Position numbers and translations under genes: made by a program | Notes under the pieces: generated by a model | What the model saw: the letters and a program-made list of their open reading frames with translations, nothing else | Databases searched by the model: none | What the model was told of the DNA's origin: nothing | From: Bacteriovoracia bacterium | Lineage (GTDB): Bacteria; Bdellovibrionota; UBA1018; JBFWNL01 | Assembly (NCBI GenBank): GCA_050251055.1 | Contig: JBFWNL010000003.1 | Coordinates: 256,001-320,000 of the forward strand | Length of the DNA stretch: 64,000 nucleotides | Direction of reading: 5' to 3' | Shown: in pieces, positions 2,170-42,863 of the stretch | How positions within the stretch are numbered: position 1 is the stretch's first letter | Layout of the letters: each line of letters opens with the position of its first letter

Positions 2170-2697
2170 ATGGGAGATCATACTCTCGTACTAAACGCCT
2201 CCTTCGAACCTCTGTCGATCATCAGCTGGCAACGAGCCATCCAACTTTTATTCCTGGGCAAAGTCGAAGTCATCGAGGAGTCCGAGCGCGAGATTCGCAC
2301 CGTGCGCTTCACGATCAAGGCGCCCGCCGTGCTTCGCATGCTCAGCTACATCCCGATCGCGAAAAAGCGGCAGATCATCCGTTTCTCCCGCGCCAATGTT
2401 TTCATCCGGGACCAATACCAATGCCAATACTGCGCCGACGTGCTGCCTCGCCAGCAGCTCACGCTCGATCACGTCGTGCCCTCCGTCCAAGGCGGGGAGA
2501 AAAACTGGCACAACATCGTCACTTCCTGCAAAGATTGCAACCAGCGCAAAGGGGGTCGCACGCCGGCGCAAGCGAACATGCACCTCATTCGGAAGCCGCG
2601 CGAACCGCGCTGGCTGCCGAGCAGTCAGTTGAATTTCAGCATTTCCTTCATGCCCGACCGCTGGAAAACGTATTTATACATCGATACGGAAGTCTAG
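2170..2697 (+). CDS. HNH endonuclease family protein
   Basis: LVLNASFEPL N-terminus. RD-x3-CQYC, TLDHVVP-x3-GG, NIVTSCKDCN-x2-K HNH signature. Confidence 0.92.
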   Translation: MGDHTLVLNASFEPLSIISWQRAIQLLFLGKVEVIEESEREIRTVRFTIKAPAVLRMLSYIPIAKKRQIIRFSRANVFIRDQYQCQYCADVLPRQQLTLDHVVPSVQGGEKNWHNIVTSCKDCNQRKGGRTPAQANMHLIRKPREPRWLPSSQLNFSISFMPDRWKTYLYIDTEV

Positions 2698-24023: not shown

Positions 24024-24338
24024 CTAGGACTTAATTTTCACATCGACGCCAGCCGAGAGATCCAGCTTCATCAGCGAATCAATCGTCTGTTGGGTCGGCT
24101 CGATGATGTCCAAAAGCCGCTTATGGGTTCGAATTTCGAACTGTTCGCGCGACTTTTTATCTATGTGAGGCGAGCGGAGAACGCAATATTTATTGATCAC
24201 GGTCGGCAGCGGGATCGGTCCCCGCACGCTAGCGCCCGTTCTCTTAGCGGTCTCCACGATTTCCCACACGGATTGATCGAGGACCCGGTGATCAAAAGCC
24301 AAAAGCTTGATCCGGATTTTGTGTTCTAAAACAGCCAT
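24024..24338 (-). CDS. rpsJ: 30S ribosomal protein S10
   Basis: KIRIKL-x-AFDH, GPIPLPT and [23 protein letters not shown]. Confidence 0.99.
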
Positions 24339-24860
24339 TCTCATCTCCTTTTAAATCCCAGGAAGTTCCCTCGCACGAGCAGATGAGTGCCCGACGAGCA
24401 ATCTTTCCCGAGTCATCAACAATGATTGAGGGAGGAGAGATACTGGTTCTGGATGTTGAAAGCAAGCGAGAAACCCTTTGAGTTCAAGGGATCTACCGGA
24501 AGCTAATAACCAACCAAAAAACACTACTTTATAACCCGCCAAGGTCTTCTGCAGAGTCCAGGAAGGGCAACCTGCCTTGTCTCAAACCCTGACGAGTAAG
24601 GCACATTACGAAAAACCGCGGGTAGTTTCTTTTTGTAACTAGCCACCGAAGAGCTTGATACTTGAGCCAAATTCCCTCAAATGCCCCTTACCCAATCGAG
24701 GAAGCTACAGAAATCAAACTACCAAAAAGAAACTCGTGGCGTCTAGGAAGACAACAGTGCCTAAAGCTTAGGCGTAAAGTCGCGGTGCCCAAGTCACTCG
24801 CGACACGGAGCGGCCCCCTGAAAATTCTCGGTTTTTCCGAAAGCACCCGTGCGGGCGGAA

Positions 24861-24877
24861 TTGGCCGCCTCCTTGCA
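24861..24877 (+). promoter_or_regulatory. Candidate sigma54 site TTGGCCGCCTCCTTGCA
   Basis: GG-N10-GC with TGGC and TTGCA, about 80 nt upstream of the 1142-aa gene. Confidence 0.45.
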
Positions 24878-24957
24878 CCTTTGGTTTCCTGATTACGGGG
24901 TATCGGGGCCTGATAAAGAATTAGTCTTTCTTTACCGTCTTCCCACTCGGGGTAGAC

Positions 24958-27900
24958 ATGCCGACGCTGATTTCGGGATCTCGCGTTGTTCTGGGTTTAT
25001 TTTTCACCTTCACTGGTTTGACCGCCTCCGGCTGCCAAGCGCGCTTGGAGCCGCGCCTTACGCGCGCACCCGCGCTCGCCCGGCTCGATACGGCGGCACC
25101 AGGAGTGATCGACGAGTCCCGTGCCTCAGCCCAAACCGCGCCCACGCAAGGCCTACTAGGCAAGTATTTCGACAACGCGGATCTCACGAGCCTGAAGTTT
25201 TCCCGCATCGACGCCGCGGTCAACTTCGATTGGGGCGCGGGATCCCCCGACGCCTCGATGGATGCGGATACCTATTCGATTCGTTGGAAAGGAAGCGTCG
25301 AAGCGCCATTTTCCGCGCCCTTCACGTTTTACACCTGGTCGGACGACGGCGTTCGCCTCTGGATCAACGACCAGCTCGTGATCGACAACTGGACGGGCCA
25401 CTCCGCGACGGAAAACAGCGGCGTCGTGTACCTCGTAGGCGGGGAGCGCTATACCGTCCGCCTCGAATACTACGAAAACACCGGCAACTCGGTGATCGGC
25501 CTGAAATGGTCGGCACCCGGGCTCGCCAAACAGATCATTCCCAACTCCGCGCTTTTCGCACCGGGATCAACGGCTAACGGGATCGGCCTGGAAGGCAAGT
25601 ACTTCAATAATGTCGATCTCACCGAGCTCATGTTCCGGCGCCTCGACCCCCGCGTATACTTCCCCTGGGGCACGAGCGCGCCGGATCCAACGATGGGCGC
25701 TAACACGTTTTCGGTAGAGTGGAACGGCTTCGTGGTTCCGCTCCATTCGGAAAACTACACGTTTTATACCTACACCGACGACGGCGCGCGCCTCTGGATC
25801 GACGGGCAGCTCATCATCAACGACTGGCAAAACCACAGCGCCGCCAACCGCGCCAGCGCGCCGATCGCGCTCGAGGCCGGCGTGCGCTACCCCTTGCGCA
25901 TGCGCTACTACGACCAATCCGGCGAAGCGGTGGCGAAGCTGAAGTGGGAAAGCGCGAGCCAGGCCATGCAGGTGATTCAAACCAGCCAACTCTTCCCGCC
26001 GGAGCTAAGCCCGGTACTCGCGCCCAACATCGGCTACGAATCCAGCATCGTGGCGACGCAAGGATCTCCACTCGGCGCGGTGATACCGATCAACACCGGC
26101 GGCCCGATCTCGGGCTGCTCGGTAACGCCCGCGTTGCCGGCAGGCCTAAGCCTGGCCGCCACGACTTGCGGAGTGAGCGGCACACCCACGGCGAGCTCGC
26201 CCTTGGCGCAATATACCGTTACCGCCACGAGCCCACTAGGTAGCACTCAAGCGATCGTGCAAATTGGCGTCAACTCAGGTTCGAATCCTCCTCCCCCGCC
26301 GCCACCTCCGGCTGCGGCCCCGGAAGTGACCGTGACCCTGAACGGAGTGAACATCACCGACGGCCAAAGCGCGGCGATCGATTTCGGTTCGGTCGCGCAG
26401 AACGCTAGCGGACCCACCCGCGTTTTCCAGGTGAAAAATGACGGCAATGCCACCCTCACCTTGGGCACGGTGAATGTGCCGGCGGGATACGCACTTACGG
26501 AAGCCCTTTCCACCAGTCTCGCTCCAGGCGCCTCGGATACTTTTTCGGTGCGCCTGAACACCGGCGCGGCCGGCAGCTTCTCGGGTTCGGTGAGCTTCAC
26601 CAACAACGACGCCAACGAAAGCCCGTTCAATTTTTCCGTCACGGGCATGGTGACCTCAACGCCGCCCCCGCCGCCGCCGCCGTCGGGCAACGCGCCCATT
26701 GGCTGCAGCATACAGGCACCCTACGGATTGAGTGGCTACGCGCCTTTCACCGCTCACGTCCACGTCATCTCGGCGGGCTGCAATCTGCGAGCGGGAGATT
26801 ATACCTCGGCGCGCATCGAATGGGACTTTGGCACTCCAAGCGGAAACCCCTACCAGCTCGTCGGCTTCAACGGGTCGTATACGTACGATACGCCGGGCAC
26901 TTACACGCTCACGCTTCGGGTCGCGAACGAAACGGGTGCGATGTCGACTTACACGGCGCTCGTGAACGTGATGGCCGACAACCGCAGTGCGATCTACGTC
27001 TCGGCGGCGGGCAATGACAACAACCCCGGCACGCAGGCCGCGCCGATCGCGTCGCTCACGAAGGTGGGTCAGCTGCTTTCGGCCGGCCCGAATAACCGCG
27101 CCGTTTACTTTCGGCGGGGCGATACGTTCACCTGCGGCGGCACCTGCTTGAGCCTAACGGGACAAAACGTGCTCGTCGGCGCCTACGGATCGGGGGCCAA
27201 GCCCGTCATCGCCACGAACCAGACCACGAACTGGGGACGCATTATTAACCTCAGCGGAAGTCAGATCGTGGTGCAGGACCTAAAAATCCGCACCACGAAG
27301 TCCGGCGGCACCTGCGGAGACAATAGCGCGGCCAACGACTCCTGTCCGGCGGCGTTCGAGTTCTCGGGCACGAACCTGACCGCCCGCCGAAACGACGCCG
27401 ACAATCTGGGCTCTTTCTTGAAAGTGAACGGGTCGGCCAACGCCGTACTGCTGCGCGGGAACTCCGCGCCGGTGATCGGCGGGTACTTCGTGTGGGCCGC
27501 CGGCGGAAACGACCACGTCTACACGGAAAACACCGTGCTGGGCTCACGCGATCAGCATAACTTCCGCATGTACCACAACCGCGTCCTGCTCCACGGCAAC
27601 TACATGTCGACGGATGGCTCCAGCGAAAAACCGTGCATTGATTTCGCCGGCACCAACTACGGCTACGCGCGCATGAACACGCTCTTGGGCCGCGTTCGCA
27701 TTGGGTACTGGGACGGCTCGGGCAGCAATCCGTCGGGACGTAACTCCGTGTTCGAGGGCAACCACATCACCTGGTCTAGCCCCGAAGGCGCGATCTTCGC
27801 CTACCCGGGCGCAGACAACACGTACTTGCGCAACAACGTGATCATCGCCAATGGCGGCGTGGGCATCAAATTCATGCTGGTGGACGATGGGAGCGGAACT

Positions 27901-28386
27901 TGGGTATGGAGCGACCACTCGTCCAGCAACGTGAGGATCGTCCACAACACGATCGTCGACTCCAGCACGAGCGACCGCCAGGCCATCGTCCTGCGCCGGG
28001 TGACGCCGGACCCCGTGCTCGTCGCGAACAACGTCGTCGTGCGCCCGAACTCGCACCAGATCGAGAACGTCTTCTTGGAGGAGATCTCGAGCCTGCCCGC
28101 GCACTACGCTTTCATCAACAACCGGTACCGGACGCCGGCGAACGCGAACTGCGTCATCCGTTCGGGAGCCGCATGCTACTCGCTCACGAGCTGGGAAGGC
28201 TTTGGCTTTACGAGCGGCGAGAACGTGCATGGATATTCGGCCAGCTCGTTTTCGGCGGACTTCACGCCGCCGAATGACCCCATTTTCCTGAATGCCCCGG
28301 TGATCCCGGGAATCTTCGACGACTACTATGGTCGTCTGCGGGGGAGCGCACGTACGGCGGGGGCCCTGGAGCGAAACCCGCTCTAG
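24958..28386 (+). CDS. Large surface lipoprotein: 2x PA14, Ig-like, choice-of-anchor-D-like, PKD-like and right-handed beta-helix domains
   Basis: LTASGC lipobox. Two GLxGKYF...SDDGVRLWI / TDDGARLWI PA14 repeats, PALPAGLSL Ig module and poly-Pro linkers. IYVSAAGNDNNPGT-x3-P beta-helix cap followed by Asn-ladder repeats. Confidence 0.85.
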   Translation: MPTLISGSRVVLGLFFTFTGLTASGCQARLEPRLTRAPALARLDTAAPGVIDESRASAQTAPTQGLLGKYFDNADLTSLKFSRIDAAVNFDWGAGSPDASMDADTYSIRWKGSVEAPFSAPFTFYTWSDDGVRLWINDQLVIDNWTGHSATENSGVVYLVGGERYTVRLEYYENTGNSVIGLKWSAPGLAKQIIPNSALFAPGSTANGIGLEGKYFNNVDLTELMFRRLDPRVYFPWGTSAPDPTMGANTFSVEWNGFVVPLHSENYTFYTYTDDGARLWIDGQLIINDWQNHSAANRASAPIALEAGVRYPLRMRYYDQSGEAVAKLKWESASQAMQVIQTSQLFPPELSPVLAPNIGYESSIVATQGSPLGAVIPINTGGPISGCSVTPALPAGLSLAATTCGVSGTPTASSPLAQYTVTATSPLGSTQAIVQIGVNSGSNPPPPPPPPAAAPEVTVTLNGVNITDGQSAAIDFGSVAQNASGPTRVFQVKNDGNATLTLGTVNVPAGYALTEALSTSLAPGASDTFSVRLNTGAAGSFSGSVSFTNNDANESPFNFSVTGMVTSTPPPPPPPSGNAPIGCSIQAPYGLSGYAPFTAHVHVISAGCNLRAGDYTSARIEWDFGTPSGNPYQLVGFNGSYTYDTPGTYTLTLRVANETGAMSTYTALVNVMADNRSAIYVSAAGNDNNPGTQAAPIASLTKVGQLLSAGPNNRAVYFRRGDTFTCGGTCLSLTGQNVLVGAYGSGAKPVIATNQTTNWGRIINLSGSQIVVQDLKIRTTKSGGTCGDNSAANDSCPAAFEFSGTNLTARRNDADNLGSFLKVNGSANAVLLRGNSAPVIGGYFVWAAGGNDHVYTENTVLGSRDQHNFRMYHNRVLLHGNYMSTDGSSEKPCIDFAGTNYGYARMNTLLGRVRIGYWDGSGSNPSGRNSVFEGNHITWSSPEGAIFAYPGADNTYLRNNVIIANGGVGIKFMLVDDGSGTWVWSDHSSSNVRIVHNTIVDSSTSDRQAIVLRRVTPDPVLVANNVVVRPNSHQIENVFLEEISSLPAHYAFINNRYRTPANANCVIRSGAACYSLTSWEGFGFTSGENVHGYSASSFSADFTPPNDPIFLNAPVIPGIFDDYYGRLRGSARTAGALERNPL

Positions 28387-28421
28387 CCCCCCCCGATTCC
28401 GTTTCACATCGTTACGCGCAC

Positions 28422-28454
28422 GCAAGGGCGGCCTCGGGCCGCCCTTGCCGTTTT
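28422..28454 (+). terminator. Intrinsic terminator after the PA14/beta-helix gene
   Basis: GCAAGGGCGGCC-TCG-GGCCGCCCTTGC 12-bp stem followed by CGTTTT. Confidence 0.7.
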
Positions 28455-28465
28455 CGTGCATTCGG

Positions 28466-28565
28466 ATTTATTTCGATTGATACAATATTATGATTATTAA
28501 AATAATATTATTTATAAATATATGTTTTTATTAATTATTATTATTTATTTAGATACATAAAAAAT
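28466..28565. other. Extremely AT-rich intergenic tract
   Basis: About 100 nt almost devoid of G/C within a GC-rich background. Confidence 0.85.
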
Positions 28566-28649
28566 GACACATCTAGTAATTACCCGACAATCCCTGTAGT
28601 CTAATTAAGAGCCAAGCAAAGGAACTACCAACACAAGGGGACAATAGTT

Positions 28650-29063
28650 ATGGGTACGAAGGGACTTTTGACTTTAGCTTTAGTGAGCATCGCCCTGTCG
28701 ATCGCGGCCAACGCCAAGACATCCGGTCCATATGGCTTCTGTGCCAGCAAATGGCCTGGACCGGTGCCCGTGACGCCAAATCGCTGCGCCATTTTCGAAG
28801 ACAATGATCCATCTTCGAACGAGGGAGAATGCCGATTTCTTTATGACTACCTAAAGGATCACGCGATATACGTGCCTGGTCAGTACGGCCAAGCCGCGGC
28901 CTGTGAAGGCGCTACGCTGTATGCGACTTGCTTGAAAAACTTTGGCTGCTCGGCGGACTATCAACCACCGCAAACCGGCCCGGGCGAGAAGAACGAACCT
29001 ACGATTCAAGATTTAATCGATAGCCTGAAAAAGACCTGCGATTGCAAACTTACGGTCTACTAG
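28650..29063 (+). CDS. Small secreted cysteine-rich protein (8 Cys)
   Basis: AAGGGGA RBS, signal peptide ending AANA and 8 Cys in the mature part. Confidence 0.75.
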   Translation: MGTKGLLTLALVSIALSIAANAKTSGPYGFCASKWPGPVPVTPNRCAIFEDNDPSSNEGECRFLYDYLKDHAIYVPGQYGQAAACEGATLYATCLKNFGCSADYQPPQTGPGEKNEPTIQDLIDSLKKTCDCKLTVY

Positions 29064-29065
29064 AC

Positions 29066-29135
29066 GAATCAGGAACCGCGCCCGCCATCCGGTGCTCTCG
29101 CCCCAAAAAAGACCGGGCGGGCGCGGTTCCGATTC
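29066..29135. terminator. Long GC-rich hairpin between convergent genes
   Basis: GGAACCGCGCCCGC (29072-29085) pairs with GCGGGCGCGGTTCC (29117-29130). Extended by GAATC/GATTC and an inner CCGGT/ACCGG. Confidence 0.6.
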
Positions 29136-29147
29136 CAAAATTTCGAC

Positions 29148-29297
29148 TTATCGAACCGCAGCCAATGCTTGCGGTGCCCGGGCCTGAGTGAGCTTGATGG
29201 GATTAGAAGCCGGGCGGCTGAAAACCGCGGCCAGTAAGACCATCAAAACTACGAAAGGGACACTCAACTCCACCATCTCCATCTTCAGCGCTCTCAT
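29148..29297 (-). CDS. Unannotated 49-aa single-pass membrane or secreted peptide
   Basis: Manual translation MRALKMEMVELSVPFVVLMVLLAAVFSRPASNPIKLTQARAPQALAAVR. GGAGGT RBS just upstream of the ATG. Confidence 0.6.
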   Translation of the reverse strand: MRALKMEMVELSVPFVVLMVLLAAVFSRPASNPIKLTQARAPQALAAVR

Positions 29298-29356
29298 ACC
29301 TACCTCCGAATTTTCCAAACCCCAGTTCCGAACTGGGAATACCGGAAGCTCGATAC

Positions 29357-29372
29357 TTCAACGCTTGTGCCA
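29357..29372 (-). promoter_or_regulatory. Candidate sigma54-like site TGGCAC-AAGCG-TTGAA upstream of the 49-aa ORF
   Basis: Perfect -24 TGGCAC with N5 spacing. The -12 has GA instead of GC. Confidence 0.35.
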
Positions 29373-29399
29373 CTAGTTATTTATCAATATTTTCAAATA

Positions 29400-29420
29400 T
29401 TTACGCTGTTTTAGCGTAAA
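29400..29420. promoter_or_regulatory. Inverted repeat TTTACGCT-N5-AGCGTAAA, possible operator
   Basis: Perfect 8-bp inverted repeat in the divergent intergenic region before the ABC operon. Confidence 0.35.
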
Positions 29421-29525
29421 ATTCAGATAGAGCCAGCCTGCGCCCATGGAGCTGAAATGATACCGATTTCAGCTGAAATACCGGGGTCGATCCGCCATAC
29501 TCGCTCGATCGAAAGAGGAAAACCC

Positions 29526-30269
29526 ATGGCCGCCCAACCGACTTCCAGTATCGTCTCGCTCACGTCCGTCTGCAAAGATTACAAACTCGGCGTCACCGTC
29601 GTGCCTGCCCTGCGCGGCGTAAATCTCACGGTCAATGCGGGGGACTTCGTCTCGATCGCGGGCCCCTCCGGCAGCGGCAAGACCACGCTCCTAAATCTCA
29701 TCGGCTGCGTGGACACGGCGACATCGGGCGAAGTGGTGGTCGACGGTCACAACACCCTGAATTTAAGCGAACGCAAGCTCACCGAGCTGCGCCTGAACAC
29801 GATCGGCTTTATCTTTCAAAGCTTTAATTTGGTGGCGGTACTGAACGTCTTCCAAAACGTGGAGTTTCCGTTGCTCCTGCAGCGCAAGCTCTCGACGGCC
29901 GACCGCGAACGTCGCGTGAATAGCCTGCTCGAAAAGGTGGGATTGCACAAACACGCTAAGCATCGCCCTAGCGAACTCTCCGGCGGGCAACGGCAGCGGG
30001 TGGCCATCGCGCGGGCGCTCGTGACCGCACCCAAGATCGTCCTGGCCGACGAGCCCACGGCAAACCTCGATTCCAAAACGGGCGAAACCATCTTGGACCT
30101 AATGCGTGAGATGAACCGCCTGGAAAAGACGACCTTCATCTTCTCCACTCACGACGCGAAGGTCATGTCGTACGCGAACTCCGTCATTAAAATCGCCGAC
30201 GGTCAAATCGTAAACCAAGGCGGCGGAAACGGCGCTGGGCAACGCAGTCACACGGAAGCGAATCAGTGA
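29526..30269 (+). CDS. ABC transporter ATP-binding protein (LolD/MacB-like)
   Basis: [34 protein letters not shown] and [13 protein letters not shown] 29526 with GAGG RBS. Confidence 0.95.
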
Positions 30270-32365
30270 TGAGCGGCATTCGGATCATTTTGCAGATCGC
30301 GTTTCGCAACCTGTTCGCGAACTTCCTGAACCTGGTCATCGGCGGCATCGTGCTCGTGGGCACGCTGCTCTTCGTGGTGGGCGGCTCTTTTCTCAACAGC
30401 GTCGATCAATCGATGTCCAAGAGCATCATCGGCAGCGTGTCGGGCCACGTGCAGGTATATTCGAGCAAGTCGAAGGAAAAACTCGCGCTTTTCGGAGACT
30501 TCGGTTTTCCGGATTTGGCGGCGATCCCTGATTTTTCGAAGGTAAAAAACTCCCTCACGACGATTCCGAATGTGCAGACGGTGATCCCCATGGGCGTCAA
30601 CAGCGCGAGTATCACCTTCGGCAATACGCTCGACCAAGTACTTGAAAAGCTGCGCGCGGCGGTGAAACGCCGGATGGCGGGCGATCATTCGCGTGAGCTC
30701 GCGGATAAGATCGCGAGCCTCAAGAGCCACGTACGACATATCGCGGGCGTAATCCAAACCGATTACCAACGTTTTAGTGTAATGGCCTCGGCCGATGCCG
30801 TGGACAGTGATGGTCTCGCCTCGTTGAAACGCGCTACCTCCGACTCCTTCTGGGCTGGCTTCGACGCCGACGCGTTGAACCAGCTCGAATTTCTCGAAAA
30901 TAAGGTCGCCTCCTTGCTTCCCGATGCTGATTACATTTTCCTCAACTACATGGGCACGGACCTCGAGGCGTTCAAACGCTCGTTTGACCGGATGGAAATC
31001 GTAACTGGCAATATGGTGCCCGAGCGACAGCGCGGGATCGTGCTCTCTCAGTATGCCTACGAAGAGGCCTTCAAACTCAAGAGCGCACGTCGTCTCGACA
31101 AGATCAACGAAGCCTTGACGGAAAAAGGCCAGCGCATCGCGAACGAGCCCGATCTGCAGCAGATGATCAAGCACAACCGCAGCCAAACCCGCGAGATCAT
31201 TCTCCAGCTCGACCCCCTCGCCATGCGGCAGTTCGTGGGGTACCTGCAGGACTTCTTGAAAGACAACCGCACGGAAGCCGCGCCTTTGCTCGCCACGTTT
31301 TTCGAGATGAATGACGAAAACTTCGCCCCGCGCTACAAGTTCTTCTACGAGAAACTCGCCCCCATGCTCGAGCTCTATCGATTGAAACCGGGTGAATCAC
31401 TCATCATCAAGGCTTTCACGAAATCGGGTTTCATCCAGACCATCAGTATAAAGGTCTACGGCACGTTTCAGTTCAAGGGCCTCGAGAAATCGGGCCTGGC
31501 CGGCAGCATGAGCCTCATGGACCTGATGTCCTTCCGCGACCTCTATGGCTACGTAACGCCCGAAAAAATCGCCGAGACGGAGGCGCTGAAGAAAACCGTC
31601 GACTCCCAGTTCGTGAAACGCGACGAGGCGGAGGCGGCTCTGTTCGGCGGCGATAGCATCGTCGAGACGGGCCGCAGCCGACAGATCGATGACCGCGCGG
31701 AAATGGGCGGGGTGAAGTACACGACCACGGGCGATACCGGTGCCGGCCGAGTCTACACGCAAGCGGAGATTGAAAACGGCGTCGCCCTGAACGCGGCCGT
31801 TATCCTGAAGGATCCGACCCAGCTAGAAGCCACCATGAAAGAGATTGCGGCCGTCTCCCAGCGGGATGGGCTCGACCTAAACGTGGTCGACTGGCAAGAA
31901 GCGGCGGGTAACGTGGGGCGCTTCGTCTTCGTCGCCAAAATGGTGCTCTACTTTGCTGTTTTCATCATTTTTGTGGTGGCGCTCGTCGTGATCAACAACG
32001 CCGTGATGATGGCGACCCTCCAGCGTATCCGCGAAATCGGCACCATGCGCGCGATCGGGGCCCAACGCGGCTTCGTGCTCGCGCTGGTCGTACTCGAGAC
32101 CGTATTCCTGGGCCTGGCGTTCGGGTCGGTCGGCACCTTCCTGGGCGCCCTCGCGGTGAAGTGGCTGGGCTGGAAAGGGATTCCGGCTGTCAGCGATTTT
32201 CTTTACTTCTTCTTCTCGGGGCCTCGGCTCTTTATCAGCCTCGGCACCGGTAGCGTGATCGGCGCGATCATCGTGATCGGGCTGGTGACGGCGATTTCGG
32301 CGCTCTATCCGGCTATTATCGCCACCCGCATCGCTCCCGTGCGCGCCATGCAAAGCGAAGACTAA
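30269..32365 (+). CDS. FtsX/LolE-like ABC permease with very large periplasmic domain
   Basis: IAFRNL N-terminus and one TM, then a ~500-aa soluble domain. RIREIGTMRAIG and three C-terminal TMs. Confidence 0.9.
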   Translation: MSGIRIILQIAFRNLFANFLNLVIGGIVLVGTLLFVVGGSFLNSVDQSMSKSIIGSVSGHVQVYSSKSKEKLALFGDFGFPDLAAIPDFSKVKNSLTTIPNVQTVIPMGVNSASITFGNTLDQVLEKLRAAVKRRMAGDHSRELADKIASLKSHVRHIAGVIQTDYQRFSVMASADAVDSDGLASLKRATSDSFWAGFDADALNQLEFLENKVASLLPDADYIFLNYMGTDLEAFKRSFDRMEIVTGNMVPERQRGIVLSQYAYEEAFKLKSARRLDKINEALTEKGQRIANEPDLQQMIKHNRSQTREIILQLDPLAMRQFVGYLQDFLKDNRTEAAPLLATFFEMNDENFAPRYKFFYEKLAPMLELYRLKPGESLIIKAFTKSGFIQTISIKVYGTFQFKGLEKSGLAGSMSLMDLMSFRDLYGYVTPEKIAETEALKKTVDSQFVKRDEAEAALFGGDSIVETGRSRQIDDRAEMGGVKYTTTGDTGAGRVYTQAEIENGVALNAAVILKDPTQLEATMKEIAAVSQRDGLDLNVVDWQEAAGNVGRFVFVAKMVLYFAVFIIFVVALVVINNAVMMATLQRIREIGTMRAIGAQRGFVLALVVLETVFLGLAFGSVGTFLGALAVKWLGWKGIPAVSDFLYFFFSGPRLFISLGTGSVIGAIIVIGLVTAISALYPAIIATRIAPVRAMQSED

Positions 32366-32382
32366 CCTATGAGGATCGAAGC

Positions 32383-33684
32383 ATGAAACAGCTCTTTTTG
32401 ATCGCCATCCGCAACCTCATTCAAAACCGCAAGCGCACGATCTACCTGGGCGGCGCCATCGCGGGCGTGAGCTGCCTGCTCGTGATGCTGCTCTGCCTGT
32501 CTTCCGGCATGCGGCAAACGATGTTTAAATCCGCGACCGTACTGCAAACCGGCCATCTGAACGTGGGGGGATTCTACAAAGTGACCTCGGGCCAATCCGC
32601 ACCCGTGGTAACCGACTATAAGAAGCTTTCGGAGATCGTGCGCCAAACCCTACCCGACCTCGATTATCTCGTGGCTCGGGGCCGCGGTTGGGCAAGACTG
32701 GTGAGCGATTCGGGTTCAGTCCAGGCGGCCATCGGCGGGCTCGACTATTCCCAAGAAGGCGCCTTTAAGAACGCGATCCAGGTCATTTCGGGTAACCTAG
32801 ACGAACTTTCCCAGCCCGGCACGATCATGATCTTCGAAGAGCAGGCCAAGAAACTCGAAGTGAAGGTGGGCGACACCCTTGTGATCTCGTCCACCACCAC
32901 CCGCGGAATGAACAACACCATCGACGTGCGCGTGGTCGCCATCGCCCACGACCTGGGCATCCTGAGCTCGTTCAACGTATTCATCCCCGACGAATCCGTA
33001 CGCAAGCTCGAGCAGCTCAACGCCGATGCGACCGGCGCCATCCAAATTCATATTAAGGACATCGCCCGCATTCCCCAAGACATGGAGCTGCTGCGTAACG
33101 CGTTTTCGGCAGCCGGTTACCAGCTGATGGATCGCGAAGCGAAGCCCTTTTGGGAAAAATTTGACTTCGTGAACCGCGAGGACTGGACGGGGCAGAAGCT
33201 TGACATCACCACCTGGGAGGAAGAGATGTCCTTCTTCAAATGGGTATTCACCGCCATCGAAGGCCTGATGTTCGTGCTCACGACGATCCTGCTCGTGATC
33301 ATCTCCATTGGTATCATGAATTCGATGTGGATAGCCATCCGCGAGCGCACGCGCGAGATCGGCACCCTGCGCGCGATCGGCATGCAGCGCATGCGCGTGA
33401 TGGCGATGTTCGCGATCGAAGCGTTTTGCCTGGGCTCGCTCGCTACCGTCGCCGGCGCGGCGATCGGCATTGGGCTGGCCGCCTTACTGAACTCGGCCCA
33501 GATCAGCGTCCCGTTGAACGCGCAGTTTCTGCTCATGTCGAACACGCTTAAGCTTACGGTAGATTTCTCACGTATTTTGACCGGCATGTCGGTCATTACG
33601 GCGTGTACCACTTTGGTTTCGTTGATTCCGTCGATCCATGCGGCCCGCATGAAACCCATCACCGCCATGCACCACATTGGCTAA
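32383..33684 (+). CDS. FtsX/LolE-like ABC permease
   Basis: IAIRNL and ERTREIGTLRAIG. 1+3 TM topology. Confidence 0.92.
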   Translation: MKQLFLIAIRNLIQNRKRTIYLGGAIAGVSCLLVMLLCLSSGMRQTMFKSATVLQTGHLNVGGFYKVTSGQSAPVVTDYKKLSEIVRQTLPDLDYLVARGRGWARLVSDSGSVQAAIGGLDYSQEGAFKNAIQVISGNLDELSQPGTIMIFEEQAKKLEVKVGDTLVISSTTTRGMNNTIDVRVVAIAHDLGILSSFNVFIPDESVRKLEQLNADATGAIQIHIKDIARIPQDMELLRNAFSAAGYQLMDREAKPFWEKFDFVNREDWTGQKLDITTWEEEMSFFKWVFTAIEGLMFVLTTILLVIISIGIMNSMWIAIRERTREIGTLRAIGMQRMRVMAMFAIEAFCLGSLATVAGAAIGIGLAALLNSAQISVPLNAQFLLMSNTLKLTVDFSRILTGMSVITACTTLVSLIPSIHAARMKPITAMHHIG

Positions 33685-33691
33685 CCGAGGT

Positions 33692-34531
33692 ATGAAAACC
33701 ATGACGCAACTACTTTCCTTGACCGCTCTGATAATCGGAATCATTCCCGGACATGCTTCCGTTGCACTGTCCGCTCCTGCGGCGAAACCCGCGGCCGTGA
33801 CGCCGACGGGCGGCGCAAAACTAGATAGCAAACAGATGATGGACCTTTTGGCCGGGATCGACCAGCGCATCCGTAGCCCCGGCGACTACAAGTCGCTCGT
33901 GTACCTGGAGCAACGCGAAAAAGATAAACCGGATGTAGTGCGCGAAGCGCTTGTCTACCGCCGCGACGTCGACCAAAAACTCATGATTCTCTTTACCAAG
34001 CCCAAGGCCGAAGCCGGTAAGGGCTACCTGCGGCTCGACAAGAACCTTTGGTACTACGATCCGGGAGTGGGTAAGTGGGAGCGCCGCACGGACCGTGAAC
34101 GCATCGCCGGAACGGACTCGCGTCGGCAAGACTTCGATCAATCGAACCTCGCCGGCGAATACAAGCCCGCGTTCGAAGGCGAGGAAAAACTCGGCAACTT
34201 CGACGTGTGGGTGCTGAAACTCACCGCGAACCCCGGTATCGACGTCGCCTACCCGATCGTGAAGTTTTGGATCGACAAAGCCACAGGCAACGATCTTAAG
34301 CGTCAGGACTTCGCGCTCTCGGGCCGCTTGATGCGCACGTCTTATAACCCAAAATGGCAGAAGCTCTTCAGCAAGGCAAAAAATGCCGAGCTTTGGTACC
34401 GCCAGGAAGTACGTATCTACGACGAAGTGGACAAGGCGAACTCGACGCTGGTCGTGATCAAGAGCGTGGATTTGGATCCCCTACCCGAGAACATGTTCAC
34501 GAAGGCGTGGCTAGAATCCAAGAGTAGATAG
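33692..34531 (+). CDS. Outer-membrane lipoprotein-sorting (LolA-like) periplasmic protein
   Basis: Signal peptide and F-x2-P-x3-AG-x-GYL-x4-NLW-x-Y-x-P, GTDS-x3-DF pattern. C-terminal LPENMFT. Cassette context. Confidence 0.8.
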   Translation: MKTMTQLLSLTALIIGIIPGHASVALSAPAAKPAAVTPTGGAKLDSKQMMDLLAGIDQRIRSPGDYKSLVYLEQREKDKPDVVREALVYRRDVDQKLMILFTKPKAEAGKGYLRLDKNLWYYDPGVGKWERRTDRERIAGTDSRRQDFDQSNLAGEYKPAFEGEEKLGNFDVWVLKLTANPGIDVAYPIVKFWIDKATGNDLKRQDFALSGRLMRTSYNPKWQKLFSKAKNAELWYRQEVRIYDEVDKANSTLVVIKSVDLDPLPENMFTKAWLESKSR

Positions 34532-34621
34532 GCTTCGCCGCTCACCGGATAACCGGCAGACATTGCCCATTTTTAAAACCGGTTGATTTGGCGAAGCATC
34601 CTGCGAGCATGTTAAGTAACC

Positions 34622-36112
34622 ATGCGTTTCGCCAAGCGGTTTCATATTCTCGCGGCAATCGCCGGGTTCGTTGCCGGCGTTAACTCACTTTCGCACGCGG
34701 ATCCCAAAGAACGCGAGGGCGGCCGGCCCAGCGAAGCCGACATTTTCGGCGCGCCTGCAGATGCGGCGGCGAATCCGACTAAGCCCGTCCAGGCTACTGG
34801 TACCGCGAGCCCACCGCCGAACTCTTCCCAAACCTCCGTGGGACCCGCGACGACCGAGGCCGACCCACGCGCTGCCGAACTCGCCGCGCCAGCCCACTCG
34901 TTCAAAGACCAATTCGCGGCCGGCACCGCCGTCGACAATCCACTACAAATCGGCGGTCGTTACTATCAACGCCTTATTCTCAGCGGGCAAGAAGGCAGGG
35001 GTCTCACGAACGCTCCGTTGGCTGCACCCCTGCAATTTGATGGCTTCCTCGACGGACGCCCCAATGATCGCCTGCGCGGCTACATCAATAGCCGCCTCAG
35101 CTACGACCCCACTTCCACCGCTAACGCTTCGGTCGCCCTCGATCAGGCATGGTTGAAGTTTGATATCGACCGCGCCGTCTTCGTCACGGCGGGCAAACAG
35201 CATGTGAAGTGGGGTACCTCCCGATTTTGGAATCCGACGGACTTCCTGAGCAACCAACGCCGCGATCCTCTCTTGCCCTACGATCTGCGCCTGGGCAGCG
35301 GCATGGTAAAATTCGACTTGCCGATGGAGGCATCCCGCAGTGCGATCTACGCGATCTTGTTGCTCGATAATCCTTCGGCGGCGGGCACCGCCGGAAAAAC
35401 GGGCCTAGCCCTCCGGGGAGAAACTACCGCCGGCAATACCGTCATGGGATTAGATTTCGTCTTCCGCGGGCAGCGCTCGCCGGTTTACGGCGCCGATCTC
35501 ACGAGCCCGCTCGGGCCGTTCGACATCTACGCCGAACTCGCGTATCAGCCGCGCCCGAGCGGCAGCCAGTATCAGCTGCTCGCGCCACCGACCGCGGGCG
35601 CCGATTTATCAAGCTTCGTACTCGCCACCCCGCGCACGGGATCGGCCACGCAAGCGAGTGGCGGATTGTCCTACAGTTTTTCGTGGAAAGAAAATCGCGT
35701 CGCCACCGCCGGGATCGAGTATTTTTACAACGCCCTTGGCTACGGCGACATCGGCGCCTACCCCGTGCTCTATGCCACGGGCGAATTCCAACCCTTCTTC
35801 TTAGGTCGACACTACTTCGGGCTCTATCTGACTGCGGAAGGCCCGGACGAAGCCAAGCGCACTTCCTACACCTTCACGTTGCTCGGAAATCTTTCGGATC
35901 ACTCTTATCTAGGACGCATCGACTTCGCTTGGCGGGTGCTCACCTATCTCACCTTCGATATCTACCTCAACGGTCACTTCGGCCAACCGGGCGGAGAGTT
36001 TCGTTTTGCCATGCAGACCCCCGCGCTGACGTACTCGGGTACGACAATTCCAGCGGTGAACCTGCCGAATGCGATCTTCGATCTTGGCCTCGGTCTGCGC
36101 TTAGATTTTTAA
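34622..36112 (+). CDS. Putative outer-membrane beta-barrel protein
   Basis: Signal peptide and Pro/Ala linker. DQAWL...VTAGKQ-x3-WG-x4-WNPTDF. C-terminal beta-signal GLGLRLDF. Confidence 0.75.
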   Translation: MRFAKRFHILAAIAGFVAGVNSLSHADPKEREGGRPSEADIFGAPADAAANPTKPVQATGTASPPPNSSQTSVGPATTEADPRAAELAAPAHSFKDQFAAGTAVDNPLQIGGRYYQRLILSGQEGRGLTNAPLAAPLQFDGFLDGRPNDRLRGYINSRLSYDPTSTANASVALDQAWLKFDIDRAVFVTAGKQHVKWGTSRFWNPTDFLSNQRRDPLLPYDLRLGSGMVKFDLPMEASRSAIYAILLLDNPSAAGTAGKTGLALRGETTAGNTVMGLDFVFRGQRSPVYGADLTSPLGPFDIYAELAYQPRPSGSQYQLLAPPTAGADLSSFVLATPRTGSATQASGGLSYSFSWKENRVATAGIEYFYNALGYGDIGAYPVLYATGEFQPFFLGRHYFGLYLTAEGPDEAKRTSYTFTLLGNLSDHSYLGRIDFAWRVLTYLTFDIYLNGHFGQPGGEFRFAMQTPALTYSGTTIPAVNLPNAIFDLGLGLRLDF

Positions 36113-36221
36113 AAATCTATAATTACAAACAGATAGACTGCCGTCCAAGTGGAGTCCATCGTGAAAGGAAACCCATGAACCGTACTCTCCGCTGAAATCG
36201 CATCGCCGCGCAGAAAAAAAT

Positions 36222-36246
36222 GCCCGCTGGTTTGAGCCAGCGGGCC
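36222..36246 (-). terminator. Intrinsic terminator, copy 1 of a 25-bp direct repeat
   Basis: GCCCGCTGG-TTTGAG-CCAGCGGGC stem preceded by A7 on + (U-tract on -). Identical to 38317-38341. Confidence 0.85.
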
Positions 36247-36272
36247 GCTTTCATCTGGATACGAATTCGGGT

Positions 36273-37334
36273 TCAATGAACCGGAATATCCAAGTTAGGC
36301 TGATAATATAGATCTTCGTAATTCATCATCAAGCTGAAGAACGACTTGAAGCGGCTTGTTTGCGCCAAAAACCGCTGCCAGCCCACGTTCAGGGTATAGA
36401 GTTCCAATCTTGAAAGTTGAACCTCCATACCCGGGACCGTACCTTTAGGTGGCTTCACGTCCAGCACCTTGGCATCCATACCGATGCCGTCTCTAGAGTC
36501 ATCGAACACAATCACGTATTTTTTGTTATCGGAGCCCCAGTTGCCCTGATCCCGCGCTCGGGCCTTGGACGATACATGGCGCCACTTCAAACCAACGTAG
36601 GCGTTTAGATTAAAATTAGCCGGCAAGGTTTCACGAAGGTGCGTGGCCACGAATCTAGCAATCTCTACTTCCTCGTCGCTGCCTGCGCCAAAAAAAGAGG
36701 CGAACTTCACTTCGTCGAAGCCGAAGTAGGTCTTTAAGATCTCCACTGCCTTCGCTTTCACGGAATCGCGTTGTTTAGATAAGCTCAAAGCGGAAAGCGC
36801 CGCCGCCGCCTGATCGTAATCTGCGAGCATGCTGCCCGGCTCCGCAAGGAATGAGCTGCCATCGGTCACATATCTCACTTCGCCACCGCCCAAGAACCAA
36901 GAAGAGACCTGGTATTTGCCATCTTCCACACCCATGATGCCTAGGTACTCGTGAAGGACGAGGGCGACTTTCTTGCGGGGATTCTGGATGGAAACCCAAG
37001 CCTGACGGCTCACCAGGATCTTCTTCTCCGCCGGGGTATTGATGGCTTCCTTCACCACTCCGTTAAGAACGAGCGTACGCTCTACGCACTCGACCGAGAC
37101 CGCGTCGATCATCTGCTGAAAGAGGTTGAGATCGATCTTCTGCAAGGCTTCCGGATACTTCACGCCCAGCTCCCGGCGCAACGTTCGGGCGGTTTCGATG
37201 AATTCGAGCGCGCAGGTATCTCCGCCCCCGCTGGAACCTGGACCCGGTACCAAACCCGACGTCGGCTCTCCAGCCATGACCGGCGCGGCACCCAACAACG
37301 TGAATAGGCTGACCCACAAAGAAAACTTTTTCAT
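36273..37334 (-). CDS. Secreted hypothetical protein with Gly-rich GSSGGGD motif and HExxG motif
   Basis: GGAG RBS, signal peptide MKKFSLWVSLFTLLGAAPVMA and LVLHEYLGIMG. Confidence 0.8.
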   Translation of the reverse strand: MKKFSLWVSLFTLLGAAPVMAGEPTSGLVPGPGSSGGGDTCALEFIETARTLRRELGVKYPEALQKIDLNLFQQMIDAVSVECVERTLVLNGVVKEAINTPAEKKILVSRQAWVSIQNPRKKVALVLHEYLGIMGVEDGKYQVSSWFLGGGEVRYVTDGSSFLAEPGSMLADYDQAAAALSALSLSKQRDSVKAKAVEILKTYFGFDEVKFASFFGAGSDEEVEIARFVATHLRETLPANFNLNAYVGLKWRHVSSKARARDQGNWGSDNKKYVIVFDDSRDGIGMDAKVLDVKPPKGTVPGMEVQLSRLELYTLNVGWQRFLAQTSRFKSFFSLMMNYEDLYYQPNLDIPVH

Positions 37335-37457
37335 AAATACAGCACTCCTAACGCGACTCATAAATCAACTACTACTCACCAGGCCAGCCGCGATTTCAGC
37401 CCAGCGAATGAACCCGGGTTTAACCTGTTTTCTGACGCCCCACGAGGTGCTTATTGT

Positions 37458-37494
37458 TAATATATTACGAATTATGTAATATATTATTACGAAT
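37458..37494. promoter_or_regulatory. Two TAATATATTA palindromes 19 bp apart, candidate operator
   Basis: TAATATATTA at 37458-37467 and 37477-37486, within TAATATATTACGAAT and TAATATATTATTACGAAT. Abuts the regulator ATG. Confidence 0.5.
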
Positions 37495-38305
37495 GGAAGG
37501 GACACCTACCGTATTTGACTTTGATGACTATAAGGATTTTCTTAAAGCCACGTTTTCCGGCAAAGGAACCTGGGGGCTAATCAGCAAATTGGCCGAAGCC
37601 GCGGGGTGCCAGCGTTCGTATCTTTCACGGGTGATCCACGAAGAGGTTCATCTCACCCCCGACCATGGATACGGTTTGGGGAAGGGACTCCGCTTAAACG
37701 CCGACGAGTTCGAATACTTCTTGGCTCTATTGGAAAAAGCCCGTGCAGCATCGAAAAGCTACCGGGAGCACCTAGAAGCAAAAATACGGAGACTGAAACG
37801 CGAACATGAGGATCTTTCCAAACGTGTCCAGCGCCCGGCGCAAACAGTTCTTTCGCCCCAGCTCCAGTCTTACTATTCCTCATGGCACTGGAGCGCCATT
37901 CACATCGCAGTCAGTGTTCCGACGCTGCAGACCGTGCCCGCTATCAGCCGGCGTCTAAGCCTGCCGGAGGCGGCGGTCGAAAGCGCGCTTAGGCAACTCC
38001 ATTCCATGGGCCTGGTCAAAAACGATGGGGGGCGCTGGTCCTACCTACCGACGGAACTGCATACCCCCAAGAATTCCCCTTACGTAAACATGCACCACGC
38101 AAACTGGCGGCAAAGAGCCACGCTCGATGCCCAGGACCCCACGCGCGACAGCCTCCACTACACCGTAGTTCAATCGATGGACCGCAACGCCTACGAGAAA
38201 ATCCGACGGGAGTTTCTCGCGACGATCGAACAAGCGAGCAATATTGCCCGACCAGCGCCGGAGGAAAAACTCGTCTGCATTACCTGTGATATCTTTGAAC
38301 CCTGA
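37493..38305 (+). CDS. TIGR02147/DUF4423-like putative DNA-binding regulator
   Basis: VFDFDDYKDFLK start and an XRE-like HTH (LAEAAGCQRSYLSRVI). EFEYFLALL, YYSSWHWSAIH, a second winged HTH and H-x-NWR. Recognised by eye. Confidence 0.8.
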   Translation: MEGTPTVFDFDDYKDFLKATFSGKGTWGLISKLAEAAGCQRSYLSRVIHEEVHLTPDHGYGLGKGLRLNADEFEYFLALLEKARAASKSYREHLEAKIRRLKREHEDLSKRVQRPAQTVLSPQLQSYYSSWHWSAIHIAVSVPTLQTVPAISRRLSLPEAAVESALRQLHSMGLVKNDGGRWSYLPTELHTPKNSPYVNMHHANWRQRATLDAQDPTRDSLHYTVVQSMDRNAYEKIRREFLATIEQASNIARPAPEEKLVCITCDIFEP

Positions 38306-38310
38306 AAAGC

Positions 38311-38346
38311 AAAAAGGCCCGCTGGTTTGAGCCAGCGGGCCTTTTT
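38311..38346. terminator. Bidirectional intrinsic terminator of tuf and the regulator gene, copy 2 of the 25-bp repeat (38317-38341)
   Basis: AAAAAGGCCCGCTGG-TTTGAG-CCAGCGGGCCTTTTT. Confidence 0.9.
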
Positions 38347-38368
38347 GTTTCTAATCTTCAGCTAAAAT

Positions 38369-39559
38369 CTACTCGATGATCTCGGACACGACGCCGGCGC
38401 CGACGGTCTTGCCGCCTTCGCGAATGGCGAAGCGCAGTTCCTTCTCCATCGCCACCGGGGTGATCAAGTCCACCGTGATCGCGATGTTATCGCCCGGCAT
38501 CACCATCTCCACGTTCGGCGGCAACTCCACGATGCCCGTCACGTCGGTCGTGCGGAAGAAGAACTGAGGACGATACCCCTTGAAAAACGGGGTGTGACGT
38601 CCGCCTTCTTCCTTCTTCAAGATATAAACCGAGCCCTTGAACTTCTTGTGCGGCTTCACCGATCCCGGCTTCGCCAACACTTGTCCGCGCTCGACTTCTT
38701 CCTTCTTCGTGCCGCGGAGCAAAGCGCCCAGGTTGTCCCCGGCTTCGCCGTAATCAAGCAACTTGCGGAACATTTCGATGCCCGTCACCGTCGTCTTCGT
38801 CGTCGGACGCAGACCGATGATTTCCACTTCCTCGCCCACCTTAATCGTTCCGCGTTCCACGCGGCCCGTGACCACCGTACCGCGGCCCGAGATGGAGAAC
38901 ACGTCTTCCACCGGCATCAAAAACGGCTTGTCCTTATCGCGCTGAGGCTGGGGAACGTAAGCGTCCACCGATTCCATCAGCTGCACGATCGCCTTTTCGC
39001 CCAGGTCGCCCTGGTCGCCAGCCAGACCCTTCGTCGCCGAACCCTTGATGATCGGGATCTTGTCGCCCGGGAATTCGTACTTCGAGAGAAGCTCGCGAAC
39101 TTCCATCTCCACCAGGTCCAAAAGCTCCTTGTCGTCGACCATGTCGCACTTGTTGAGGAATACAACAATGGCCGGAACACCGACCTGGCGGGCGAGCAGG
39201 ATGTGCTCGCGCGTCTGCGGCATCGGACCGTCAGCGGCCGAAACCACCAAGATCGCGCCGTCCATTTGGGCGGCGCCCGTGATCATGTTCTTCACGTAGT
39301 CGGCGTGCCCAGGGCAGTCGACGTGCGCGTAGTGGCGCTTGTCCGTTTCGTATTCCACGTGCGAGGTGTTGATCGTGATCCCGCGCTCTTTTTCTTCCGG
39401 CGCGTTGTCGATCTGGTCGTACGCACGTGCCTGCGCGTAACCCTTCTTCGCCAGCACCGTCGTGATCGCCGCCGTCAACGTCGTCTTGCCGTGGTCGACG
39501 TGACCGATCGTCCCGATGTTGCAGTGGGGTTTCTTTCTATCAAATTTCTCTTTTGCCAT
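38369..39559 (-). CDS. tuf: Elongation factor Tu
   Basis: [29 protein letters not shown] and NKCD. Confidence 0.99.
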
Positions 39560-41717: not shown

Positions 41718-42863
41718 TTAGGGATCCTTTATTTGGGCTCGCTGCGCGATTACGCTGACTAATATCACCGCCCAACAAGCGTACAAAAGCACAAAAACAT
41801 GCGGAAAAATAAAATAGTGCACCACCGCGCTATGGCGCATGAGCACGATCCACACGTAAGAAGCTACCAGCGCCAACCCGCTGGCGGCGGCGAACTGTGC
41901 CCGCCGGTGACGCGGCCCCAGATACAACCAGGCGGCTAAGAACGAGAGCGCCAACATCTGGAAGGCTCCGATACGGAAAAACCCTGCCACGTGTTGGCTA
42001 TACTCGAATACGAGCTTCAAAAGCGGCACGGGCGCGCCGCCCGAGCGCCCCAGATAGGTCGCGATCTGGTCTTGCCACGCATCCGAGAAGCTCGCCAAAA
42101 ACAAGGCCACTTGAGTAAAATGCACGGCATAACCTGCCAAAATCCCCAAACCCACGACAAACGAGTCGCGCAGGCCGCGCCGCCAATTCAGGCGCTCGGG
42201 CCGCAAGAGTCTCCCCACCAGGGGGGATGCGCAGATCACGAAGACGCTCGTGAATTGGACGTAAATCCCCGCAAAACCCAGCGCCCACCACCACGGCGTT
42301 TTCACCGCCTTACGCATACCGAGAGCCAATCCCGCCAAAGTCAGCGCGTCGGCGTACGAAACGCCCACGAGGGTCAAACCCCATTGATAAATGGCGGGGG
42401 CCAAAAAAAGTGGCAACGCCAAAGCCGCACGCGACCACGGCCAAGCGGGTACGACCTCGCGGGCGGCCGTTAAGATCAAAAAAAGCACCGCCGCGAGCGT
42501 GCATAGAAGCGGAAGCATGCGTGCGTAAGGAATCGTTGAATCATCCCCACCTAACAGACGGAATGGAATCCACGAAAGGTAACTGTCCCCCGGCAGATAG
42601 TGCGTGTAAACGAATGTTTCCCGCAGCTTCGCGATCGGCGTCTCATGGTTGAAGCCTTTAAAAACCGGGAGGCCGTAGGTCGGCCCGAAACCATCGCGCA
42701 AAAATTCGCGAATCCCCTCAATGGTCATTGCCTCCGCGGTGTGCTGAATGGCGGGCGACGGCCCGAAATGACGGATCAACGCCACTTCCTTCACGAGGAA
42801 AAGGACGCAAATAATAACGAATGCGGTTTTAGGGAACGAGCTGGCTTTCGCCAATCTTACCAA
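41718..42863 (-). CDS. Polytopic membrane protein, GT-C (ArnT/PMT-like) glycosyltransferase candidate
   Basis: About 10 hydrophobic segments, and a large first loop ending in YTHYLPG. Fills the rpsG-fusA gap exactly. TTG start at 42863 or 42854. Confidence 0.65.

Follow-up and report, generated by a model that had tools for sequence, protein, structure and literature searches.

A terminator-like hairpin present at both ends of a divergent regulator and secreted-protein gene pair beside tuf in a Bacteriovoracia bacterium, a possible scar of one old insertion

We analyzed 64,000 nucleotides (nt) of contig JBFWNL010000003.1 from a Bacteriovoracia bacterium (hereafter the window), in which a divergent gene pair next to tuf is bracketed by two copies of the same terminator-like hairpin. 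We put about even odds on a single insertion, in which a regulator gene and a secreted-protein gene entered a bidirectional terminator beside tuf together and a hairpin was left at both ends. In appearance, the site is what one old insertion would leave behind, and no evidence shows that the gene pair can move. The pair is an ordinary divergent pair, made up of a TIGR02147/DUF4423 DNA-binding protein and a putatively exported two-domain protein of an uncharacterised family, and the window is core chromosome. The features concerned are the following, with protein lengths in amino acids (aa), stems and arms in base pairs (bp) and open reading frames abbreviated as ORFs.

36222 to 36246, no strand assigned: copy 1 of the 25-nt hairpin, an exact match with a 9-bp GC-rich stem and a 6-nt loop
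38317 to 38341, no strand assigned: copy 2 of the 25-nt hairpin, an exact match
36216 to 36251, no strand assigned: extended repeat at copy 1, 36 nt, identical to 38311 to 38346 at 33 of 36 positions
38310 to 38347, no strand assigned: perfect 38-nt palindrome with copy 2 at its core, 16-bp arms and a 6-nt loop
36273 to 37334, minus strand: secreted-protein gene, 353 aa, an ORF with a signal-like N-terminus and an alternative start at 37361
37335 to 37492, no strand assigned: divergent promoter region between the two genes, 158 nt
37458 to 37486, no strand assigned: candidate operator, a perfect 11-bp inverted repeat, TAATATATTAC N7 GTAATATATTA (inverted repeat I1, 100% complementary)
37493 to 38305, plus strand: TIGR02147/DUF4423 regulator gene, 270 aa, assigned by the scores against both models
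38369 to 39559, minus strand: tuf (EF-Tu), with Pfam GTP_EFTU, D2 and D3 domains, the last gene of the row rpsL-rpsG-(381-aa ORF)-fusA-tuf
34622 to 36112, plus strand: last gene of a lol-like ATP-binding cassette (ABC) operon, 496 aa, converging on copy 1, with a DUF1302 score of 22 bits that lies below the cut-off of 23.2

The 25-mer GCCCGCTGGTTTGAGCCAGCGGGCC was found on the plus strand at 36222–36246 and 38317–38341 in direct orientation, and the window contains exactly these two copies; no further match was found on either strand with up to three mismatches. The gap between them (36247–38316, 2070 nt) holds exactly the two divergent genes and their 158-nt promoter region. A first-pass annotation, made from the letters of the window, had described an exact repeat, identical even in the loop and in direct orientation, that encloses exactly two divergent genes, and the coordinates of the two matches and of the ORFs (36273–37334 on the minus strand and 37493–38305 on the plus strand) bear this description out. 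Two matches were reached in 0 of 100 dinucleotide shuffles. The repeat is slightly longer than first noted: local alignment extended it to 31 nt with one mismatch (AAAAA(T/G) followed by the 25-mer), and a listing of repeat families (D20) gave 33/36 identical positions between 36216–36251 and 38311–38346. Because the stem is a perfect palindrome, the direct orientation of the copies is set solely by the asymmetric loop, TTTGAG.

Beyond these limits the similarity ended. The 200-nt flanks of the two copies aligned with scores no better than those of shuffles, and permissive local alignments of the 45-nt flanks in direct orientation were equalled or beaten by 93 (right flanks) and 390 (left flanks) of 1000 shuffles. 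The repeat is real, short and sharp-edged, and it stands far above chance. A longer, decayed duplication was considered and ruled out by the unrelated flanks. The 9-mer of the stem was found in the two copies alone, by which a DNA-uptake sequence was ruled out as well, and neither a palindromic repeat in high numbers nor a word resembling an uptake sequence was evident in the window.

Both copies have the form of intrinsic terminators, each with a 9-bp stem in which eight pairs are G–C and a 6-nt loop. At copy 2, the 16-bp arms of the palindrome contain A5 and T5 tracts and form a perfect stem of 16 pairs, with folding energies of –35.7 (plus strand) and –32.5 kcal/mol (minus strand) and z values of about –7.6 on both strands; 0 of 200 shuffles folded as well. 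This hairpin lies 27 nt beyond the tuf stop codon on the minus strand and 11 nt beyond the regulator stop codon on the plus strand, and U occupies 7/9 (plus) and 6/9 (minus) positions of the tails that follow it. The sequence suggests that the copy 2 palindrome is a bidirectional intrinsic terminator common to tuf and the regulator gene, and the distance from the tuf stop codon agrees with the earlier designation of the repeat as the tuf terminator. Copy 1 lies 26 nt beyond the stop codon of the secreted-protein gene (minus strand) and 109 nt beyond that of the plus-strand gene at 34622–36112. On the minus strand its nine pairs (eight G–C) are followed by the tail ATTTTTTTCT, and the RNA fold reached –26.5 kcal/mol (z –3.1); on the plus strand, the tail has U in only 4/9 positions. 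Copy 1 would accordingly be the terminator of the secreted-protein gene and would probably stop the lol-like operon only weakly.

Judged by a GC-rich stem-loop and a U-tract placed just past a stop codon, terminator-like sites lie at copy 2 for either strand and at copy 1 for the minus strand, the plus-strand side of copy 1 being weak; the proposal that both ends of the pair are terminated holds in this form. No Rfam family matched the site at gathering scores, and the sub-threshold matches were all to terminator-bearing families. Among ten perfect hairpins in the window with stems of at least 8 bp, three were intergenic, and the third of these (28422–28448) differs in sequence from the two copies, so the terminators of this region are not generally alike. 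The arrangement resembles the bidirectional intrinsic terminators outlined in bioRxiv 10.1101/2022.10.23.513370 in having a GC-rich hairpin between an A-tract and a T-tract, 11–27 nt past convergent stop codons. It differs from them in that the same hairpin, including the loop, occurs twice, 2.1 kb apart, as two predicted terminators.

We then joined the outer flanks of the two copies computationally to one hairpin copy. The restored site has U in 7/9 positions on both strands and would constitute a symmetric bidirectional terminator; together with the poor terminator that copy 1 now offers the lol-like operon, this fits a terminator formerly shared by the two convergent units. The GC content at third codon positions (GC3) was also low in both genes of the pair. 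In a table of 39 chosen ORFs, from which small ORFs and some ribosomal genes were left out, the regulator gene ranked second lowest (0.624) and the secreted-protein gene fifth lowest (0.658), compared with 0.81 for tuf and 0.70–0.78 for the lol-like genes. The insertion reading is favored because the repeat edges are sharp, the restored terminator is symmetric and GC3 is low in both genes. In these respects, the idea of the first-pass annotation that a cassette was inserted at a terminator is reasonable; its further suggestion of mobility finds no support, since the window has neither a third copy of the hairpin nor convincing terminal inverted repeats.

The course of events that we infer is as follows. 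The lol-like operon (plus strand) and tuf (minus strand) would formerly have converged on one bidirectional terminator composed of an A-tract, the hairpin and a T-tract. A 2.07-kb segment carrying the two divergent genes may then have entered this terminator in one event, leaving a hairpin copy at each end. Such an event could have been the mending of a break with staggered ends around the palindrome or, equally possibly, one crossover that joined the resident hairpin to its identical counterpart on a small circular DNA, in which case the 3΄ ends of both genes would have converged on the hairpin of the circle. At present, copy 2 would stop transcription of tuf and the regulator gene, and copy 1 would stop that of the secreted-protein gene and, weakly, that of the lol-like operon.

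The regulator was assigned to the TIGR02147/DUF4423 family by the first-pass annotation, and profile searches agree. Against TIGR02147 (an NCBIfam model of type 'paralog', named Fsuc_second), residues 19–274 of a 283-aa ORF aligned to model positions 3–259 of 272 and scored 51.6 bits (E = 9.1e-14), which exceeds the cut-off of 50 by a narrow 1.6 bits. Against Pfam DUF4423 (PF14394), the score was 61.8 bits with a cut-off of 30, over model positions 8–164 of 165. The protein therefore resembles the TIGR02147/DUF4423 proteins of Bdellovibrio and Fibrobacter in clearing both cut-offs over nearly the full models, and differs in the small TIGR02147 margin. The most likely start is the ATG at 37493, which fits the length and N-terminus of the relatives. 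A profile of 41 relatives searched against the PDB gave weak matches to winged-helix regions of ArsR, MarR and FadR at about residues 135–205, and to SinR, HigA and C.BclI at about 8–68. From these matches, the regulator likely comprises two DNA-binding modules, an N-terminal XRE-like helix-turn-helix (HTH) and a central winged HTH. Defence-system models (PADLOC) gave only weak HTH-type matches.

Searches with the regulator found 76 proteins including the query (E ≤ 1e-3), at 29–55% identity and with 55% for the best other protein. Nearly all are about 265–275 aa in length, and the named ones come from metagenome-assembled genomes (MAGs) of Bdellovibrionota or Oligoflexia; the Atlas clusters of the regulator are likewise mostly from Bdellovibrionota. 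The supplements of PMC12546842 name at least Bd3700 and Bd3758 of B. bacteriovorus HD100 as DUF4423 proteins, and Bd3700 is listed as up-regulated during growth in prey. Their neighbors Bd3701 and Bd3757 are uncharacterised according to these supplements, in which Bd3699 and Bd3759 do not appear. Beyond PMC12546842, we found no report on TIGR02147/DUF4423 proteins in the literature searched and no member with a known function.

Promoter-like hexamers for the regulator gene were found at 37457–37485 (–35 TTAATA, a 17-nt spacer and –10 TATATT), and the candidate operator overlaps them. For a motif related to the operator, the window gave two occurrences, a number reached by 0 of 100 shuffles. 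The ATG at 37493 stands 7 nt downstream of the –10 hexamer, from which a leaderless regulator mRNA would follow, and the overlap of inverted repeat and promoter suggests a leaderless, self-repressed gene. The regulator would probably bind as a dimer to the 29-bp palindrome over its own promoter and thereby repress itself, and it may also control the neighboring secreted-protein gene.

The secreted-protein gene has AGGAG 10 nt upstream of its ATG at 37334. By eye, the N-terminus, MKKFSLWVSLFTLLGAAPVMA followed by GEP, looks signal-like to us, which would suggest export through the Sec pathway. A direct repeat of 22 nt (73% identical, 27 nt apart) was observed at 37331–37379, where it spans both candidate ATG starts of the gene. 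The protein matched no sequence in Pfam, NCBIfam, PADLOC or the PDB. Searched exhaustively, the cluster representatives contained 815 relatives at E ≤ 1e-3, of which 179 reached ≤1e-10 and 4 reached ≤1e-30; the best other protein is 43% identical over the full length. Most matches cover residues of about 30–150 alone, which we call the N-domain. In 43 aligned sequences, the invariant columns of this domain are G37, G38, I106, H128 and E129, that is, a GG and an HE motif. The C-domain (about 155–351) stands alone in P0091, P0098 and P0219. The C-terminal parts of relatives vary, with Pfam ankyrin repeats in 2/43, a WD40-type match in 1/43 and LRR_5 in 1/43, and those of the five closest relatives from a word search resemble leucine-rich repeats. 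The Atlas model of the protein is poor (predicted local distance difference test, pLDDT, 0.46), and all its TM-scores, normalized by the query, were ≤0.40. Low as they are, these scores and a single weak match to PhageMetallopep, in 1/43 relatives, leave a metallopeptidase-like fold as a weak lead.

Several observations weigh against an insertion of the pair. The GC3 deviation is mild, and low expression could account for it. Read from this window by itself, the change at the site could be a gain of the pair or a loss. The 76 regulator-like proteins of similar length, spread across Bdellovibrionota at 29–55% identity, indicate that the regulator gene may be an old resident of the lineage rather than an arrival. 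A search of the minus strand gave no promoter-like site for the secreted-protein gene, so that regulatory coupling of the pair is tentative. The hairpin counts span only the 64-kb window. In addition, we know of no mechanism that routinely yields a duplication of 25–36 nt.

Among other explanations, we first considered that the hairpin is a small dispersed repeat, of the repetitive extragenic palindromic (REP) or SPRITE type, which landed independently at two gene ends without any block insertion. We regard this as unlikely. Small palindromic repeats do occur in intergenic regions, and one family described in PMC3184786 is terminator-like; moreover, the shared A-tract lengthens the similarity to 31–36 nt, and copies were counted within the window. 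Like REP elements, with their RAYT (TnpA-REP) transposases, the hairpin is also an extragenic palindrome that is small, GC-rich and placed at the ends of genes. However, only two copies were present in 64 kb, and the GTAG that precedes REP palindromes, as given in PMC8266576, was absent from both strands of both copies, whose 5΄ flanks read AAAT and AAAG on the plus strand and AGCG and AAAG on the minus strand. A Pfam scan of 62 ORFs of the window (those of at least 100 aa, with overlapping shadow ORFs left out) found no tnpA or other HUH transposase and no transposase, integrase or other recombinase domain of any kind, in line with the earlier statement that the pair carries no recombinase of its own. 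Furthermore, when the 24-nt hairpin was searched in 185,579 species-representative genomes, a set to which the source genome does not belong, the only match was in a Hyphomicrobiaceae MAG (JAPXTA010000028.1; locus L001, 2001–2024), where the loop too is identical and the hairpin lies 28 nt beyond an ORF end with a T-rich tail after it. On a rough estimate of our own, we take this to be an unrelated alphaproteobacterial terminator that arose by chance or convergence.

Slightly less probable is local copying, in which nothing was inserted: the pair would have stood beside tuf for long, and gene conversion or templated repair would have put a copy of one terminator at the opposite end. The membership of the regulator in a widely conserved group of about 268-aa proteins in Bdellovibrionota is consistent with such a history, as is the fuller palindrome of copy 2 (16-bp arms), which copy 1 resembles as a partial copy would. 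However, conversion needs prior similarity, of which the flanks show none, and local copying leaves unexplained both the symmetric terminator obtained from the joined outer flanks and the low GC3 of both genes.

We consider a mobile cassette improbable. In that reading, the pair would be non-autonomous, target terminator hairpins, duplicate its target and be moved by an enzyme encoded elsewhere, and TIGR02147 regulator-effector pairs would multiply in this way. Such a cassette would agree with direct repeats that enclose just two genes, which bring their own promoter region and terminators, with the lack of a recombinase in or near the pair in the 62-ORF scan and with the low GC3 of both genes, and it would also agree with a TIGR02147 family of many clusters, mostly in Bdellovibrionota, with at least two members (Bd3700 and Bd3758) in HD100. 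However, the window contained no third copy of the hairpin with up to three mismatches, and the stem 9-mer was likewise confined to the pair. Alignment of the inner flanks revealed no convincing terminal inverted repeats: the inverted match was marginal, being equalled or beaten by 34/1000 shuffles as one of six comparisons made, and its two stretches lie at unequal distances from the repeats. No DNA match to the 2.25-kb region was found in 72,556 plasmid and 50,697 phage records. The nearest relatives in the collections searched, at 55% (regulator) and 43% (secreted protein), are not what is expected of a recent mover, although this lineage is sparsely sampled. As a weak proxy for linkage, the lengths of the longest contigs listed for six other secreted-protein relatives coincided with none of those for 75 other regulator relatives; this proxy is insensitive, because the word-indexed search behind it missed the best relative given by the exhaustive search. 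Target duplications made by transposases are a few bases long, and 25–36 nt is much longer, a length closer to that of an attachment-site core. What would mark a transposon, namely a transposase within the element or further copies of it, was absent: the 62 scanned ORFs include no transposase, and the hairpin pair is single in the window. More doubtful still is a hairpin-recognising recombinase encoded elsewhere that uses terminator hairpins as attachment sites, moves small self-contained modules of a regulator and a secreted protein between operon ends, with module and host operons left correctly terminated, and thereby expands the TIGR02147 pairs of Bdellovibrionota.

Known mobile systems differ from the locus in several ways. 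An integron cassette has an attC site and depends on an integron integrase and attI; here, the 62 scanned ORFs include no integrase, the hairpins lack the look of integron sites, and the module has two genes with their own promoter region. Elements of the IS200/IS605 group are not known to make a target duplication. These elements and their transposase-less derivatives (PMC3201880, PMC4810608) are alike in having hairpins of the same orientation near both ends and in that the transposase can be missing; they differ in that their own palindromes, as described in PMC3201880, are imperfect and cleaved at a distance, while here each palindrome is perfect, the two are the same and both resemble terminators, and the 62 ORFs scanned in the window include no TnpA, which these elements need. 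Composites flanked by MITEs (transposable elements of the miniature inverted-repeat type), such as the IMU-flanked integron, and SPRITE similarly place genes between two small structured repeats that are movable in trans. According to PMC3184786, however, the IMU and SPRITE repeats measure about 100–290 nt and have terminal inverted repeats and a 5-bp target duplication, compared with repeats of 25–36 nt here, at which no convincing ends of this kind were found. The IMEX elements that use XerCD at dif (PMC5357621, PMC9765430), circular elements whose integration by a host enzyme duplicates the attachment site, are alike in that the insert lacks a recombinase and has at its ends direct repeats of a short palindrome whose center is 6 nt long. 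Here, by contrast, the site is a terminator beside tuf, and no relative was found among the 72,556 plasmid and 50,697 phage records. GC skew was negative in 16/16 blocks of 4 kb across the window, with no switch, and this together with the ribosomal-operon surroundings indicates that the region is not the replication terminus, where dif lies. The literature matches listed included no described equivalent of terminator duplications bracketing a cassette.

An assembly artefact, in which foreign DNA ended up beside tuf through a chimeric join at a short repeat common to both, is very improbable: a metagenome-type source assembly is likely, given that the relatives are MAGs, and a repeat of 25–31 nt could mislead an assembly graph with small k, but both proteins are recorded on two contigs (the longest of 375,960 nt), both junctions are clean and each sets a terminator with a hairpin and U-tail at a gene end, and the Bdellovibrionota relatives of the regulator are consistent with the rest of the window.

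Returning to a single insertion beside tuf, we examined the wider neighborhood of the pair. The lol-like ABC operon on the plus strand encodes a LolD-like protein, two FtsX-type permeases, a LolA-like protein and the weakly DUF1302-like protein. The S10-spc-alpha ribosomal operons start at rpsJ (24024–24344), about 14 kb from tuf. In many bacteria, tuf and rpsJ are adjacent. In the window, the interval between them (24345–38368, about 14 kb) is entirely non-ribosomal and contains the two-gene module, the lol-like operon and the gene of a 1142-aa PA14 protein, and the two-gene module may be just the last of several additions between tuf and rpsJ. No tRNA genes were found in the window.

Three further ORFs of the window are recorded here in their own right. 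Between rpsG and fusA lies the 381-aa ORF (41718–42863, minus strand), whose product is very hydrophobic, looks polytopic and has no Pfam, NCBIfam or PADLOC match; the position of a non-ribosomal gene within the str operon row is unusual. A large surface protein is probably encoded at 50159–55165 (plus strand): its 1668 aa are built from about 14 tandem repeats of 225 nt (75 aa) and weakly match BiPBP_C and SprB repeats. The only nuclease-like ORF found in the window is a stand-alone HNH endonuclease ORF (HNH_5 and HNH; 2170–2697, plus strand), 34 kb from the module.

The first-pass annotation had taken the locus as a hint of how the TIGR02147 family spreads and as a candidate for an undescribed system. 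We could not sustain either view: nothing shows a mobile cassette, the nearest relatives being only 55% and 43% identical, and we judge the locus to be a TIGR02147 regulator with a divergent partner and a possible terminator insertion scar, rather than a new system. If the hairpin were a reusable attachment site, it would represent a new route for the spread of small gene modules, and the present evidence gives no such indication. As a separate lead, the N-domain of the secreted protein (P0085–P0232 among relatives) delimits a family, 815 representative clusters in size, for which Pfam has no model. If the site is an insertion scar only, it would be a tidy case of genes slotted into a bidirectional terminator with the core operon left undisturbed, and it adds one uncharacterised TIGR02147 regulator that stands beside a directly testable candidate operator.

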